Sequence record: OL631481.1 | Length of the DNA: 64,000 nt | Source of the DNA: Escherichia phage ECML-183-2 | Strand: one strand, 5' to 3' | In this document: one piece after another, positions 47,385 to 56,846 of the stretch | Layout of the letters: each line of letters starts with the position of its first letter | How positions within the stretch are numbered: the first letter of the stretch is position 1 | The notes under the pieces: generated by a model | The model's input: only the letters and a program-made list of their open reading frames with translations | Database searches by the model: none | What the model was told of the DNA's origin: nothing | Position numbers and translations under genes: made by a program

Positions 47385-47927
47385 TCACAAATATCGTCTT
47401 TGCGGTATTTTGTCTGGGAAAAGTATTTCGATCAGTTTGTTATGATATTTACCTAAAAGATTTTGCCCTTTCCAGTTGACCGGATTTAGCACCCCTGGTT
47501 CATACATTCCCATTCCAATACCGTAAACCTTATCGTAAGGACTTGCTTCAACAAACGTTTTGTATTGGTAAAGGTGTAAGTCTGCATACAAATCTGGATT
47601 CTGTACATATTTCAAGCATAAACCTCGCATAACAATACGCTCACGGTTCTCTTCCCATACGTTGTTATCAAAATCCGACACTGCCCTACCCATACGTTTG
47701 TAATAAGCTTGAATCTTCTCATCTTTCCGTATCAAACTATGAGTCAGAATAGCCTGTGCAGTGTTGTGATCATTAAAAAGCAAAGCTTTACGCCACATTA
47801 TGTATTGTTCGACACAATTAAATGTCTGATTGTAACCTGGTTCGGTTTCTGTAAAGGGTGCAATATACCAATTACTAAAAACATCTTTATGTGAAAAGAA
47901 GAATACATAATCATCAGTTATTCGCAT
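47385..47927 (-). CDS. NADAR-domain (YbiA-like) protein
   Basis: 180 aa; FSNWY, EQYIMWRKA, WEENRERIVMRGL..KY.QNP.L, VEASPYD, GQNLLGK colinear with E. coli YbiA. Confidence 0.75.
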   Translation of the reverse strand: MRITDDYVFFFSHKDVFSNWYIAPFTETEPGYNQTFNCVEQYIMWRKALLFNDHNTAQAILTHSLIRKDEKIQAYYKRMGRAVSDFDNNVWEENRERIVMRGLCLKYVQNPDLYADLHLYQYKTFVEASPYDKVYGIGMGMYEPGVLNPVNWKGQNLLGKYHNKLIEILFPDKIPQRRYL

Positions 47928-48138: not shown

Positions 48139-48481
48139 AAACTGCGTCTGCGTCGATGAGTTTGTGTTTGTTGTTCCGCATGTAGTCTAAGATAAGTAGA
48201 CGTTTATTGTATCTGGAGAGATTATGACCCTCTTTTCCGCCATAGTCAAAATATTTTGCAAGATCTTTACACTCAAACAAAATCAGTTCGGGAGTTTCTT
48301 CACACTGGTCTGTCTGGTACACTTGACGAATGATCATGTATACATCGTCGTCTTCCGCTAAATGCTCTACTGGTCCACATCCAGCAGGAACAAATTCATA
48401 GTCCCATCTGATCAGATGTTTCTCTACTGCTTCAAAGAAGTCCATTCTTTCGTTGCGCATAATTTGAACGTCAACTAACAT
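48116..48481 (-). CDS. hypothetical protein (121 aa)
   Basis: ORF track. Confidence 0.45.
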   Translation of the reverse strand: MLVDVQIMRNERMDFFEAVEKHLIRWDYEFVPAGCGPVEHLAEDDDVYMIIRQVYQTDQCEETPELILFECKDLAKYFDYGGKEGHNLSRYNKRLLILDYMRNNKHKLIDADAVYGYWWMD

Positions 48482-49659
48482 GTTTCCTCCTGTAATGTTC
48501 CACCATAAAGTTTATAAATGTTTTGTATTGATGCCATGCAAGATAACTCCGCTGTCTCTGTGTAGCCATCTGGCATAGCATATTTGCTCACTGCTTCCGT
48601 GTGAAGGACACGCTTACAACGCTTTTCTGCATCTTTGCATTGCTTCACAGTAGGGAAGTGCCACACTTGGCCCTGTTTCATAGTAAACACATTACGACTA
48701 TTTTGTTCTTTGATACGGCGATTACTATTATTAGCAATACCAAACTTCAGTGCACAGATAATATCTTGCTCATCGTAAATATAATTAATGTAGGCTTGTT
48801 GTTGATTTTTGTTAGCACACTGCGGACAACCTTGTCCTATGTTTAAAAGGTTGTTTGCAGTTCCTTTTTGTTCCCCATGACTCTTACATACGTATTTAAA
48901 CTTACCTATAGAAGATGGTTTGGTAATCCATCCTATCCAAACATACCCTTTCTTTTCTATTTTCTTTCTTACTTTATACGTAATCTGTTCCGCTGTATAC
49001 CTATAAGATGCAGAGCAACGGCAGGGTAAGTGTCCATATTTAAGATTGCTACGCGTCATATAAAACTTACCATCACATAGTCCAGCTTTAACATATTCAT
49101 CATGAGAACAAACAGGACACTGAACCATCCATACTGGATCACACCCTTTACGTTCCCCCGTGTTGGTGAAAATAGTGCCTTCCTTAAACTTCCCTGTAGA
49201 AAAGAAATCTGCAATATGTTGATCGTCGGGTATTGTTTGTGACCTCCTTGTGTTCTCATACCTACATATAAGACAACCACTGCCATGTTTAAAACTATCA
49301 AAACTACATGTATTCCATTCATGACCATACCTACAACGTAGCATCATTTTCGTACGCGCACCTTTAAACGGTTCTACGATACCTATGATGGTAATCCCCT
49401 TAGCTTCCGCTATTGGTTTACATTCAGTAAGGTATGTTTTTAAATCTTTAATTTGACCTGCACACATAGGACAACCACTACCACGTTTAAAACTGTTAAT
49501 ACTTGTAGTATCCCATTTATAACCACAATGACACAACAAATCAAGTTTTGTATTAACCCCTTTCCATTCTCCCGTCCATCCTAAGATTTGGATTTGCTTA
49601 CTCTCTGCTATTGGTTGACACTCTTCTTTATATTGTTCCCATGATTTTGGTGCTGCCAT
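48475..49659 (-). CDS. T5orf172 (GIY-YIG-like) domain protein with four N-terminal CxxC zinc-ribbon repeats
   Basis: Repeated W..F..GSGCP.C units; C-terminal YINYIYDEQD..KFGIANN..RR ... GYTETAEL. Confidence 0.5.
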   Translation of the reverse strand: MAAPKSWEQYKEECQPIAESKQIQILGWTGEWKGVNTKLDLLCHCGYKWDTTSINSFKRGSGCPMCAGQIKDLKTYLTECKPIAEAKGITIIGIVEPFKGARTKMMLRCRYGHEWNTCSFDSFKHGSGCLICRYENTRRSQTIPDDQHIADFFSTGKFKEGTIFTNTGERKGCDPVWMVQCPVCSHDEYVKAGLCDGKFYMTRSNLKYGHLPCRCSASYRYTAEQITYKVRKKIEKKGYVWIGWITKPSSIGKFKYVCKSHGEQKGTANNLLNIGQGCPQCANKNQQQAYINYIYDEQDIICALKFGIANNSNRRIKEQNSRNVFTMKQGQVWHFPTVKQCKDAEKRCKRVLHTEAVSKYAMPDGYTETAELSCMASIQNIYKLYGGTLQEETC

Positions 49660-51593: not shown

Positions 51594-51845
51594 TTAGAAC
51601 TCGACAATTATTTTGTCTAAGTGTTCTGCTTCAACTTGGGATAATGTTAACACCTGCACCAAACCTCTGTCAATGCCTAATTTGATCACTTGCAAATAAT
51701 CGCCAAAAAGATCAGAGATTTCAATCTGGTGTTCAGTAACCACCACGACCTCGTTACCCTTGGTATACTCTCTCCAGATTCGTCCACACTTGTAAATGAA
51801 ATCTTTCTGGTCTTCACTGATCATCTTAGGCTTAACGCTTAACAT
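51594..51845 (-). CDS. hypothetical protein (83 aa)
   Basis: ORF track. Confidence 0.45.
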   Translation of the reverse strand: MLSVKPKMISEDQKDFIYKCGRIWREYTKGNEVVVVTEHQIEISDLFGDYLQVIKLGIDRGLVQVLTLSQVEAEHLDKIIVEF

Positions 51846-52183
51846 TACATACTCCCGTATTCTGGTTCAATATTATGTTTACGACAAATGGTATCCCAAC
51901 GTTCATTACCAAAACTTCTTCCATGTAGAGCGTTAAATGCGAAATGCTCTGCCAACCACAATACTACATCATCAGGATCTGTGTCAAGAGGAATTCTAAA
52001 CTCTCGATCATAACGCATACGCAGAATAAAATCCTTATCATCTTCAAGGAGATACATGTGACTTTTAGCCCGTGATGCCAAATCAAAGAAAGGAGGCTCG
52101 TCTTTCCAAACGTGACGCTCAACTTCAACACCATGATCAACTACCAGAGTAGCGATCACCTCTCTCATTTCTTTACTAAACAT
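51845..52183 (-). CDS. hypothetical protein (112 aa)
   Basis: Track ORF (TTG) trimmed to ATG with GGAGG RBS. Confidence 0.5.
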   Translation of the reverse strand: MFSKEMREVIATLVVDHGVEVERHVWKDEPPFFDLASRAKSHMYLLEDDKDFILRMRYDREFRIPLDTDPDDVVLWLAEHFAFNALHGRSFGNERWDTICRKHNIEPEYGSM

Positions 52184-52193
52184 ATTACCTCCA

Positions 52194-52370
52194 TTAACCA
52201 ATTAGTTCAACCGATTTGCAAATGTAGATCCAAACTGGAGTGAGCATAAGAGTTATACCGAATGCACAATTCCACTTAATTCCCATTTCCTCTATTAGAG
52301 ACATGATTAAGCCAACAGCACTAATAATCAGATAAATCCCTAAGAAAGCCATTGTGAAGAATTCAGACAT
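52194..52370 (-). CDS. small membrane protein (58 aa)
   Basis: Track ORF trimmed to ATG; hydrophobic. Confidence 0.45.
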   Translation of the reverse strand: MSEFFTMAFLGIYLIISAVGLIMSLIEEMGIKWNCAFGITLMLTPVWIYICKSVELIG

Positions 52371-52372
52371 AT

Positions 52373-52729
52373 TTAGCTCCAAAGATTATCAAAATAACTA
52401 GCGAATAAAAGACGGCCCTCTAACCGTGCCTTCCTTTGATCTTCAGCATACACGATTTCTGGATTACCACTATCAATAAAAGCATTCTCCATCTTTTCTA
52501 AAATATTTAACCACTCTCTTCTACCTGTCTCCTCTTCTTCATCTGTATACGGCGCACTTCTATTTGGATACAAAACACGCATCAGTTTAGTGGGGATCAT
52601 GACAAACGTGCTATTGTTTGTCTTCTCACGGAAGGCTTTAATTCCTGCATAGATTACCTTCCCCAAAGCTGCATCCAAATCCATCAGGTCACTTTCTTCT
52701 ATTTGAATTTCATCGTGTACAATTTTCAT
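52373..52729 (-). CDS. hypothetical protein (118 aa)
   Basis: ORF track. Confidence 0.5.
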   Translation of the reverse strand: MKIVHDEIQIEESDLMDLDAALGKVIYAGIKAFREKTNNSTFVMIPTKLMRVLYPNRSAPYTDEEEETGRREWLNILEKMENAFIDSGNPEIVYAEDQRKARLEGRLLFASYFDNLWS

Positions 52730-53013
52730 CGTGCCTTCTCCCGATCTGCATCTAATTTCAACAAGAAAGCTGTATACTCTTCCGAACCTTGGTGTAAAAA
52801 CATGTGATAAGAGCTTACCAGTTTCTTCGTTGTCGTATAACGTTCCATTTCCCCAACAACACCTCCACCTAGTGTGTAGAGCACAATACCTTCAACTCCA
52901 ACATGGGTTACTACTTCAACCAAATCTCTGTTATCCCAATAGTAGTTAGGTGACACAATAAGATCTCCCACTGCCAGTTTAATGTTTGCTACTTCGTCTT
53001 GTGAATAGTACAT
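52726..53013 (-). CDS. hypothetical protein (95 aa)
   Basis: ORF track. Confidence 0.5.
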   Translation of the reverse strand: MYYSQDEVANIKLAVGDLIVSPNYYWDNRDLVEVVTHVGVEGIVLYTLGGGVVGEMERYTTTKKLVSSYHMFLHQGSEEYTAFLLKLDADREKAR

Positions 53014-53025
53014 TTTGTTCTCCTC

Positions 53026-53319
53026 TCACATTAAGACACGTTTTGTATCGATGGGTGCATTATCAAACATGTTAAGAACATTGTCAAGCAGTTTTACTAA
53101 TTCATTTGTAATTTGTTCTTTTGAACGGGAGGAAGTGAGCACTTTGCTTTCACCAATGATATGCATAACTTTTATAGGGGCATCTAAAATAATGTTGTGT
53201 TGACGATCCTCTTCAAAAGAAGCCAACCATTTCTCATTGTTACCGTGCAAGGCTACAATCACACCAAAACCGTTAATTGTTTCAGAAATATTCTTAGTTG
53301 CTAAAGTAATGTTCATCAT
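53026..53319 (-). CDS. hypothetical protein (97 aa), first gene of minus block
   Basis: ORF track; divergent promoter region upstream. Confidence 0.5.
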   Translation of the reverse strand: MMNITLATKNISETINGFGVIVALHGNNEKWLASFEEDRQHNIILDAPIKVMHIIGESKVLTSSRSKEQITNELVKLLDNVLNMFDNAPIDTKRVLM

Positions 53320-53373: not shown

Positions 53374-53401
53374 TATTGACATACTTTTTAATCTTGTTAA
53401 G
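53374..53401 (+). promoter_or_regulatory. sigma70-type promoter (rightward)
   Basis: TTGACA-16-TAAGAT about 30 bp upstream of 53434. Confidence 0.45.
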
Positions 53402-53433
53402 ATCAACTCCTACCAAACAAAAGGAGAAAACAA

Positions 53434-53877
53434 ATGCAAAACATCCAAAACATCAAACTGACTTGGCCCGAAGCTAAAGAAGCAATGAAGGAAGGTAGAC
53501 GTGTTGAGCACCGCCATTTTTGTGGTGGCGAATGGTTTGAGATGCGAGATGGTGTTATTCTCGACGAACAAGGTTATAACATGGAAACTTGGTTCAGAGG
53601 GGAAGCTTGGCAGGAAGAGGGTTGGTCTGTAATTGAAAAAGAAGACAGTAAGGAAGAAGGCGTGTTGTCTAATGTAGAACGCGAGATGAGGGAAACAAAG
53701 ATACCTGCTTTGGATTTTGTATACCTGGAAGAACTTGTGGCAGCATCTTTTGTAGCAGGAAACCTTTGGAATACACCTGTTAGCCGACTGGAGAACCAAA
53801 ATAACCCGTCTACTCGTAATCACAAGCTTTATAAGGGTAAAGGTCACAACAAATTAAAGAAAGGAAAGAAGAAATGA
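53434..53877 (+). CDS. DUF2829-like protein (Tad2-like candidate) with Lys-rich C-terminal tail
   Basis: N-terminal ~65 aa W.EAKEAMKEGRRV ... GEAWQEEGWSVIE resembles DUF2829 pattern; remainder unassigned. Confidence 0.4.
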   Translation: MQNIQNIKLTWPEAKEAMKEGRRVEHRHFCGGEWFEMRDGVILDEQGYNMETWFRGEAWQEEGWSVIEKEDSKEEGVLSNVEREMRETKIPALDFVYLEELVAASFVAGNLWNTPVSRLENQNNPSTRNHKLYKGKGHNKLKKGKKK

Positions 53878-54020
53878 TCTACAAAAACAAGTTCACTGGT
53901 TGTCTTCGTAAATTTATCGATAAGAAAGGGTATGTTTCTCTTGACAACGGGGCTACATGGATAGAGAATGGCGCTTCAGAACAATTGATTAAAGCTTTGC
54001 CTTACTACGAGGAGGTTTAA
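53874..54020 (+). CDS. hypothetical small protein (48 aa)
   Basis: Not in ORF track; ATGA overlap with upstream stop; hand-derived. Confidence 0.35.
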   Translation: MIYKNKFTGCLRKFIDKKGYVSLDNGATWIENGASEQLIKALPYYEEV

Positions 54021-54344
54021 ATGTCAAACAGTCTGTTTAGCGTGTCAATTGCACCACGTGTCAATATCCGTTGTCAGTTTGTTACTTTACCTGGTGTAAC
54101 GCATATCACATTAGAATACGATCCTCGCTCACGAGACAACCCAATCACAGGGAAAATTGATTGTGCTTATGGAGACTTTGTTATGGATCACCAAACCCTC
54201 TTATGCTGTGTGCAACGCTTACAGGCAGGATCTTTATACATCTTTAAGAAAACAGTGTTCCAAGAGATTGCTCAAGCAGTTGAAAGCGGTATGGAGACTC
54301 TTAACGTTATGATTGAAGCAGCCAACAAGAAGGAGGTTTTATGA
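54021..54344 (+). CDS. hypothetical protein (107 aa)
   Basis: ORF track; GAGGAGG RBS. Confidence 0.5.
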   Translation: MSNSLFSVSIAPRVNIRCQFVTLPGVTHITLEYDPRSRDNPITGKIDCAYGDFVMDHQTLLCCVQRLQAGSLYIFKKTVFQEIAQAVESGMETLNVMIEAANKKEVL

Positions 54345-56058: not shown

Positions 56059-56233
56059 TATGCAAGACAAGAAAAACAATGTTCGTTATGCTTTGTACGG
56101 ACGTATGGGCGTAGACTGTGAATGGAGACTTCTGTTACAGCGTATTCCCTCTTATCAAGAAGCTATGACGAAGCGAGAACATTATAAGAAGACGTGGAGA
56201 CACGTTGTTTGCAAACATTACGAGGAGGCATGA
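56059..56233 (+). CDS. hypothetical small protein (57 aa)
   Basis: Not in ORF track; GGAGGGAG RBS; stop overlaps next start. Confidence 0.35.
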
Positions 56234-56541
56234 TGAGCACATTATCAACAGCAGTCAAGTTCCACCAGGATTATGAAGAAGCTGTCAAAGATGCTGACAA
56301 TCCTTCCTCATTAGTGTTTGAGGATCGTACAGGTTTGAAGTGGGTTAAATCTTTCGATGAGATCTATTTCTGGTATCCGCAGGGAGCCACAAGCGATAGT
56401 TCTCTGTATAGCTACGAACTGGAATACCGTGGCCCTGTAGACGAAGATGAAAACTTTATCATGTATTTCGTAAATAATGGTTGCGGTGAAACGTTTAATG
56501 TTGTATTCTCTAAAGCAGATGAGTCTGACGAGGAGGTGTAA
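56230..56541 (+). CDS. hypothetical protein (103 aa), tandem paralog 1
   Basis: Trimmed to ATG with GAGGAGG RBS; shares FIMYFVNNGCGETFNVVF with next gene. Confidence 0.5.
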   Translation: MMSTLSTAVKFHQDYEEAVKDADNPSSLVFEDRTGLKWVKSFDEIYFWYPQGATSDSSLYSYELEYRGPVDEDENFIMYFVNNGCGETFNVVFSKADESDEEV

Positions 56542-56846
56542 TGTTGTATAATCCGACTTTAAGCTTGGCAGTTGCAGCCCACATGCTGTACAATGATTCT
56601 GTGAAGGATGAGTTGTCGCCTGTGAGTTTAGCTTTCTATCTGATAGACAGGGATTGGATGTTCTCTGGTGAGGATGAAATCTACTACGTAAATTCACGAG
56701 GTTTTATTGAAAGTTTTGAACTTGAACATCGCGCACCAACAGCAGAAGATGATCGTTTTATTATGTTCTGTGTAAATGATGGTTACGGAGAGGTATATGA
56801 CGTAGTATTCTTCAAAAACCGACAGAAGACTGAAGAGGAATTCTAA
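56541..56846 (+). CDS. hypothetical protein (101 aa), tandem paralog 2
   Basis: FIMFCVNDGYGEVYDVVF matches upstream gene. Confidence 0.5.
   Translation: MLYNPTLSLAVAAHMLYNDSVKDELSPVSLAFYLIDRDWMFSGEDEIYYVNSRGFIESFELEHRAPTAEDDRFIMFCVNDGYGEVYDVVFFKNRQKTEEEF

Follow-up and report, generated by a model that had tools for sequence, protein, structure and literature searches.

A modular early protein of Escherichia phage ECML-183-2: a putative Tad2-fold head joined to a portable basic C-terminal peptide

What does the first gene of the rightward early block of Escherichia phage ECML-183-2 do for the phage? The gene (53434-53877, + strand) lies in a stretch of 64,000 nucleotides of record OL631481.1, referred to here as the window, from a phAPEC8-like myovirus of the genus Phapecoctavirus (Stephanstirmvirinae). 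Its 147-amino-acid (aa) product is a "hypothetical protein" in ~70 Phapecoctavirus records. An initial annotation had judged its N-terminus to resemble DUF2829, the family that includes the anti-Thoeris sponge Tad2, and had called the C-terminal ~80 residues untypical. Our comparisons indicate instead a protein that is assembled from separately evolving modules, a head (residues 9-68) and a helix A/basic tail unit (residues 87-147), and that is probably an addressed host-takeover or anti-defense factor, not a standard anti-Thoeris sponge. The features discussed are collected in Table 1.

A minimal Tad2-like head

When a profile of the protein was compared with 1.84 billion representative proteins, 189 clusters were matched at E ≤ 1e-3, nearly all over residues 5-68. 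Counted at 50% identity, the head family thus comprises at least 189 clusters, found in phages and mobile elements. Most of these relatives are stand-alone proteins of 60-70 aa, and the others are longer with the head at the N-terminus. The near-invariant residues specific to the family are A14, G21, H26, F29, E33, E45, G47 and W64, and the predicted structure of the domain (predicted local distance difference test, pLDDT, 87.5) consists of helix α1 and an antiparallel β-sheet. PHROG 22208 matches the full protein (residues 1-147 of 147, E 2.7e-102) and phrog_3474 (64 aa) matches residues 7-68 (profile 2-63 of 64, E 5.1e-30); because both are listed as "unknown function", membership in them carries no functional information.

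Pfam, including PF11195 (Tad2-like, DUF2829), gave zero matches for the protein and 21 close homologs even at E ≤ 10, NCBIfam gave no match for the protein, and single-sequence and close-homolog profile searches of Pfam, NCBIfam and PDB sequences returned nothing useful. A precomputed PF11195 annotation was found for 0 of 40 database relatives of the head. Sub-threshold matches to PF11195 were detected in 47 of 138 head relatives (best E 2.9e-4), with distant relatives scoring 14.8-18.6 bits, below the gathering cutoff of 25 bits. The A3 profile, searched against PDB sequences, ranked SptTad2, Tad2 and ModTad2 among its top seven matches (E 0.1-0.9), and hhalign of the head against the three Tad2 PDB sequences gave 79.5% over α1-β1. 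The sequence-level link between head and Tad2 is weak but consistent. Taking the sub-threshold scores, the A3 ranking and the hhalign result together, we therefore consider the call of a Tad2 fold right, with the protein falling outside the Pfam family; the head family is a remote sister of Pfam Tad2-like/DUF2829. The DUF2829-like N-terminus of the initial annotation thus survives as a residue pattern above chance and a Tad2-like fold, but the above-threshold DUF2829 match on which that annotation had staked its claim is missing for the query, and its relatives reach 15-19 bits against the required 25. Among Tudor and SH3-like small barrels, no structural match comparable to the Tad2 match was found. 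P0051, considered as 17 tandem head copies, was rejected: its repeats are eukaryotic Tudor/Agenet domains, hence it is no family member.

Is the ligand site of Tad2 retained in the head? In HgmTad2, glycocyclic ADP-ribose (gcADPR) is contacted by W21, N22, G23, W87, L88, S90, T92 and D93, and the site is reported to be conserved in ~99% of bona fide Tad2 members (10.1101/2023.11.15.567273). Defining features of the Tad2 family also include a homotetramer with ligand pockets at its interfaces and the binding of gcADPR or other immune nucleotides, by which Thoeris, CBASS or Pycsar is inhibited. The contact residues of HgmTad2 were mapped by global profile alignment of the Tad2 sequences taken from the PDB with the head family. 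Three contacts align with aromatic residues, namely W21 with F29 (F in 95% of the head family), W87 with W53 (F or W in the family) and L88 with F54 (aromatic in the family). N22 falls on C30, where the family has T, S, C or A, while G23, S90, T92 and D93 fall on G31, G56, E57 and A58, all four variable in the family. The GWNG loop between β1 and β2, to which W21, N22 and G23 belong, is absent from the head, its equivalent being H28 F29 C30 G31, and only the aromatics W53 and F54 remain of the W-x-x-S-Q-T-D helix motif of HgmTad2. Also absent is the β2-β3 insertion of Tad2 (24-41 aa; helices and, in HgmTad2, the cyclic dinucleotide (CDN) pocket), which stands opposite alignment gaps; in the head model, a two-residue turn connects β2 (35-38) to β3 (41-44).

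Compared with Tad2/AcrIIA7 (PF11195; SPO1 Tad2, HgmTad2, ModTad2 and SptTad2; 75-105 aa), the head is a shorter version of ~60 aa that lacks this insertion, has H-x-x-F-x-x-x-E in place of GWNG and variable residues in place of W-x-x-SQTD, and is followed by an extra ~80 aa that end in a conserved basic tail. The head keeps the aromatic frame of the pocket, with a different polar chemistry. By analogy, binding of a ligand other than canonical gcADPR is plausible for the head, given that diversification among bona fide Tad2 proteins has given them ligands as varied as 3'cADPR, His-ADPR, N7-cADPR, cCMP/cUMP and CDNs (10.1101/2025.08.24.671296).

A conserved basic tail on otherwise unrelated proteins

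The head is followed by an acidic linker of variable length, with indels, low conservation and pLDDT <50, and then by the helix A module (P.LDFxxLExLVAASF..G..W.TPVSR), which is common to Erwinia phage Hena1 gp02220, P0178 and FKP3. The protein ends in the portable peptide NHKLYKGKGHNKLKKGKKK, with the motif [KR][LI]xKG[KR]GHN[KR][LF]xKxKKK-COOH and a net charge of +9, as against -10 for the preceding body. In distant homologs, D94, L98 and E99 of helix A are invariant, as are K134, G135, G137, H138, N139 and L141 of the tail. Homologs that are 37-48% identical and have unrelated linkers (P0022, P0023, P0029, P0038, FKP3 and L011) retain both D94-x-x-x-L98-E99 and the terminal K134 G135 x G137 H138 N139 K L141 x K x K K K. 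Within the close family, the C-terminal half is conserved more than the head. The C-terminal ~80 residues are indeed atypical of Tad2, as the initial annotation had it, but they are the best conserved part of this protein family.

Codon analysis of ten orthologs gave the tail the lowest ratio of nonsynonymous to synonymous differences (pN/pS 0.195) and also the highest pS (0.545) of all segments; pN/pS was 0.365 for the head, 0.63 for the linker and 0.54 for helix A. The combination of highest pS and lowest pN/pS argues for selection on the peptide, not the DNA.

The same tail ends unrelated early proteins of Vequintavirinae phages. In Mydovirus phages of Klebsiella, Proteus and Raoultella (Vequintavirinae; 31 records), the head is a stand-alone 62-aa gene of the PHROG 3474 type followed by phrog_2381, the same neighbor as that of the window gene, and ~0.8 kb downstream of the head gene a 102-aa protein (phrog_27594; BIS47_230) ends in KIVKGRGHNKLKKKKKKRK. 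Hena1, also of the Vequintavirinae, encodes a headless protein of 186 aa, gp02220, with the tail KLRKGRGHNKFKKGKKK, and P0178 and P0179 are further tail bearers without the head. In this portable tail group (phrog_27594, gp02220, P0178 and P0179) the pattern [KR][LI]xKG[KR]GH[ND][KR][LF]xKxKK(K) is found at the extreme C-terminus. Like the window protein, phrog_27594 and gp02220 carry the peptide K(I/L)xKGRGHNK(L/F)KK(K/G)KKK and have their genes in the same early region, in the vicinity of an AAA ATPase; unlike it, they lack the Tad2-fold head.

Comparison of the C-terminal half with phrog_27594 by hhalign detected homology only in the last 19 residues (probability 96%, P 1.9e-9); with the tail trimmed nothing aligned, and no homology to the window protein is detectable beyond the tail. 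With tails removed, residues 53-89 of the Hena1 protein match helix A (82%, P 1e-5) and residues 97-152 match phrog_27594 in its VVLGxG segment (89%, P 3e-6), such that the Hena1 protein bridges the window C-terminal half and phrog_27594. The idea that the window gene arose when the entire stand-alone head gene fused to the Mydovirus 102-aa gene was rejected, as homology is confined to the 19-aa tail. Mimicry of a bacterial C-terminus was also rejected: a scan of the genomes of 185,579 species with a degenerate motif gave 23 matches, about the number expected by chance, and all were out of frame or internal except for one on a phage contaminant contig. This contig (L047, JAPMLR010000052.1, 541 bp, labeled 'Lysobacteraceae bacterium JHOS43') encodes the exact Phapecoctavirus C-terminus and is most likely phage contamination. 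A scan of IMG/VR with the K-variant motif gave another Phapecoctavirus as the sole true match, and a full-text literature search for the tail motif returned nothing relevant. A designation of loci L005-L010 as 'phi92-like' was discarded; they come from Klebsiella Mydovirus phages (Vequintavirinae), and the true phi92 fusion differs.

The head likewise occurs with other partners, its relatives bearing SEC-C motifs, Cys knuckles, other polybasic tails or C-terminal transmembrane helices after it. SEC-C (PF02810), seen on P0099, P0110, P0113 and P0118, is likewise a short basic C-terminal add-on, but it is not homologous to the window tail, which has no CxC...C[CH] zinc pattern, no cysteines and no Pfam match. 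In phi92, gp217 (L055 12137-12688) joins the head to a domain 61% identical to the separate window open reading frame (ORF) 51845-52201 (-), and gp218, right after gp217, matches the next leftward gene of the window (51594-51845). The gp217 chimera and this gene order indicate that an inversion or recombination had its breakpoint precisely where the head domain ends. In P0015, 15 residues of the head are deleted internally and the C-terminal half is retained. Decayed copies are present in some Justusliebigvirus/Phapecoctavirus genomes (PD06, P0015 and P0041), with either the 15-residue head deletion or a frameshift by which the C-terminal half is lost; some lineages can thus do without the gene.

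The locus and the contexts of related genes

The ORF is exactly as the initial annotation described it, down to the terminal KLKKGKKK, and has a strong ribosome-binding site. Its place as the first gene of the rightward block, in a divergent promoter region, was also borne out: the sigma-70-like promoter (10/12 in a consensus scan, with the TG extension) sits inside a 114-bp gap that separates the leftward and rightward blocks. In an alignment of 8 orthologous loci, including phi92, the -35 hexamer is invariant and the extended -10 conserved, and phage ASO2A carries an annotated promoter equivalent to this one. The GGAGA of the Shine-Dalgarno (SD) sequence is likewise invariant in orthologous loci. 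These signals predict early transcription by host RNA polymerase for this accessory protein of Phapecoctavirus. Over ~4 kb around the gene, identity is 99.4% to Dompiswa phage TSP7_1 and 96-99% to ~60 Escherichia phages. Records labeled Acinetobacter phage ABPW7, Campylobacter phages A145/B15, Pseudomonas phage PsgM04F and 'Dompiswa phage' share 82-99% identity with E. coli genomes of Phapecoctavirus or Justusliebigvirus, and their host labels look doubtful.

Table 1. Coordinates of the gene, its segments and its neighbors in the window.
Feature	Position	Strand	Remarks
NADAR-domain protein	47385-47927	-	Pfam E 1.6e-34; divergent early block
394-aa protein, four CapR-homology repeats and treble-clef zinc finger (DUF4379)	48475-49659	-	
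AAA/STAND-like ATPase, 379 aa	49735-50874	-	adjoins the CapR-repeat protein
Phage_tudor domain protein	52726-53013	-	E 1.8e-24; uncharacterized phage family
DUF7325 protein	53026-53319	-	E 1.2e-23; uncharacterized phage family
Predicted sigma-70-type early promoter	53376..53403	+	TTGACA / 16-nt spacer / TG-extended TAAGAT
SD sequence AAGGAG	53421..53426	+	read from sequence; 7 nt before ATG
Coding sequence, 147 aa, PHROG 22208	53434..53877	+	stop codon overlaps next gene's start (ATGA)
Minimal Tad2-fold head (predicted), residues 9-68	53458..53637	+	
Acidic linker, residues 69-86	53638..53691	+	
Helix A module, residues 87-123	53692..53802	+	
Polybasic C-terminal peptide, residues 129-147	53818..53874	+	
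Translationally coupled downstream gene, 48 aa, phrog_2381	53874..54020	+	same neighbor after the stand-alone head gene in Mydovirus phages
DUF7247 protein	54021-54344	+	E 1.2e-46; uncharacterized phage family

The neighborhood is a typical early block of small genes of uncharacterized function, with a UvrD helicase on the rightward side. The ATPase neighborhood recurs near head or tail genes in Mydovirus, Hena1 and phi92. ADP-ribose adducts are substrates of NADAR enzymes, and the NADAR-domain gene is possibly a counter-defense gene, for example against DarT-type systems. Two adjacent rightward ORFs (56194-56541 and 56541-56846, both +) look like tandem paralogs, both ending ...Y/F-ELE-Y/H-R-x-P...D-x-FIM-Y/F-x-VN-N/D-G-x-GE-x-F/Y-x-VVF-S/F-K.

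Elsewhere, the neighbors of head-family genes include orphan DNA methylases, a macro domain, an ADP-ribosylglycohydrolase with an ADP-ribosyltransferase toxin, Gad2 and Lar. In Klebsiella phage BIS47, a macro-domain protein (L005 5609-6220; Pfam E 4e-5; phrog_335) is encoded 1.4 kb downstream of the head gene, which stands alone there, and immediately follows the operon segment of the 102-aa tail protein. A widespread stand-alone head gene, P0209 (loci L021-L024; 285 contigs, on gut metagenome contigs of up to 661 kb), lies in a mobile-element island with the order DUF3846, DNA methylase, BubE, head, three small ORFs and ADP-ribosylglycohydrolase, with an 869-aa ADP-ribosyltransferase toxin opposite. 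On a 139-kb phage contig with P0038 (L025), genes of the Gad2 (anti-Gabija) family and for Lar restriction alleviation (298-1662 and 1-160) are divergent from the tail-bearing homolog. An accessory or anti-defense slot is the recurring theme of head-family contexts. Atd1, reported in Phapecoctavirus, was considered and set aside as unrelated; it is a MazG-like enzyme.

Candidate functions of the protein

Tentatively, the whole is best explained by a modular early protein in which a Tad2-fold head and a portable docking tail make up an addressed binder; we favor this account while placing it somewhat short of an even chance. Related Stephanstirmvirinae and Vequintavirinae phages graft the tail onto otherwise unrelated early proteins, and the tail would address any attached head to a polyanionic site. 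The head, by analogy with Tad2, would oligomerize and bind a small nucleotide-like ligand, though not canonical gcADPR; alternatively, it would simply supply multivalency. On this account the protein would serve host takeover or anti-defense as an 'addressed' binder and not as a free cytosolic Thoeris sponge. We infer that the tail docks, in a sequence-specific way, onto a polyanionic target that is conserved in enterobacterial cells. A polyanion is suggested because the +9 tail follows a -10 body, and a purely electrostatic role is disfavored because G-x-G-H-N is invariant. The most likely target would be nucleic acid, with DNA or the nucleoid slightly ahead of ribosomal RNA. A narrower version, in which the tail is a sequence-specific address label by which rV5/phAPEC8-type phages send interchangeable heads of early proteins to a single conserved site of the enterobacterial cell (nucleoid DNA or an rRNA site) and the head is a minimal Tad2-fold sponge for a nucleotide immune signal, is a speculative proposal to which we give low probability.

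Several observations weigh against the addressed-binder account. The association with ADP-ribose enzymes is recurrent (three of the five contexts examined) and not universal. The C-terminal half was modeled at low confidence, and a PDB search with the tail profile found no solved structure with a similar peptide. The last ~6 codons double as the SD sequence of the downstream gene, such that part of the conservation of the terminal KKGKKK could be dual-coding, and the tail's ArfA-like resemblance is explained by its composition. In phi92, the head has another fusion partner and no ORF with the tail was found within 12 kb on either side of gp217, and PD06-type phages hold a decayed copy (L015 1636-1815); neither module is thus indispensable.

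The rival that fares best, possible if unlikely, is a multivalent nucleoid or DNA binder, in which the head only tetramerizes and four KG(K/R)GHNK tails bridge or coat DNA through AT-hook-like Gly-flanked basic residues together with Lys clusters, thereby remodeling the nucleoid of the host or shielding the DNA of the phage. Tad2 proteins are tetramers, the +9 tail follows an acidic body and sits on interchangeable scaffolds, some with coiled-coil-like N-termini, and head relatives bear Zn knuckles and other basic tails, all of which would suit such a binder. Strict G-H-N invariance, however, is unusual for purely electrostatic DNA binding, and searches of Pfam, PDB and NCBIfam gave no homology to known DNA-binding motifs.

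The reading of the initial annotation, in which a sponge of the Tad2 type captures Thoeris signals (gcADPR or His-ADPR) and the tail plays an accessory part, now seems distinctly unlikely. The Tad2 fold with aromatics at two pocket positions, the early expression signals, the ADP-ribose-processing genes near several family members and the functional plasticity of the Tad2 family are consistent with it. Against this, there is no PF11195 match and the relatives fall below the cutoff; the equivalents of N22, S90, T92 and D93 are not conserved and H-x-x-F-x-x-x-E replaces the GWNG loop, in a site reported to be conserved in ~99% of bona fide Tad2 proteins (10.1101/2023.11.15.567273); the insertion forming the second pocket is absent; and the head is less constrained than the tail and decayed in some phages.

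We regard as very doubtful the idea that the tail is a degron for a host protease, such as ClpXP, or a docking tag for a phage partner, timing removal or assembly of early proteins. A short, invariant, disordered motif at the extreme C-terminus of several early proteins, seen only in two related subfamilies of phages and missing from bacteria, would fit this idea. ClpX class-2 C-terminal motifs are basic, but the match of the tail to them is loose.

A ribosome-directed factor, whose tail would enter the mRNA channel or another rRNA site and modulate translation or ribosome rescue, is highly improbable. The proposal draws on a class analogy only: like ArfA, ArfB and SmpB, the protein has a free, disordered C-terminus rich in Lys, Arg and Gly with a KGKG core, and KGKG(H) in the phage tail recalls KGKGS of ArfA (the ArfA sequence was confirmed against the PDB). 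The KGKGS tail of ArfA occupies the ribosomal mRNA channel, which is polyanionic RNA (PMC6299226). The Smith-Waterman score of the window tail against ArfA was 32, and composition-preserving shuffles scored equally (29.8 ± 5.4, with 33% reaching 32; 27-98% reached the observed score for other family tails). With a score not above composition, no other ArfA feature and no Pfam ArfA match, a specific similarity of the tail to ArfA was rejected; the tail profile had no PDB match either, and no RF2-binding-like segment could be identified. Some head relatives bear SEC-C motifs, which has also been counted in favor of a ribosomal role. The SEC-C tail of SecA contacts ribosomes and SecB.

Finally, that the tail is functionless as a peptide and conserved as an SD/coupling signal for the downstream gene, or persists by low-complexity drift, is hardly credible: its final codons (AAA GGA AAG AAG AAA TGA) do overlap the SD and ATG of the next gene, and the tail genes of Hena1 and BIS47 likewise overlap their downstream genes, but pS is the highest of any segment while pN/pS is low, an SD would not extend to the invariant KGxGHNKL core, 20-45 nt upstream of the next start, and the genes that follow the peptide differ from scaffold to scaffold.

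For the family, these results mean that the Tad2 fold has a widespread 60-aa 'core-only' sister family that Pfam, NCBIfam and PHROGs have not linked to Tad2; if this family binds a ligand, it is probably a new signal. Were the sponge head with an address label to prove true, it would be a spatially addressed sponge, a principle not described for anti-defense proteins. The tail itself is a strongly selected short C-terminal peptide in two subfamilies whose phages serve in phage therapy against E. coli and Klebsiella, and its sharing among unrelated early proteins suggests that early phage effectors have a cellular address in common.
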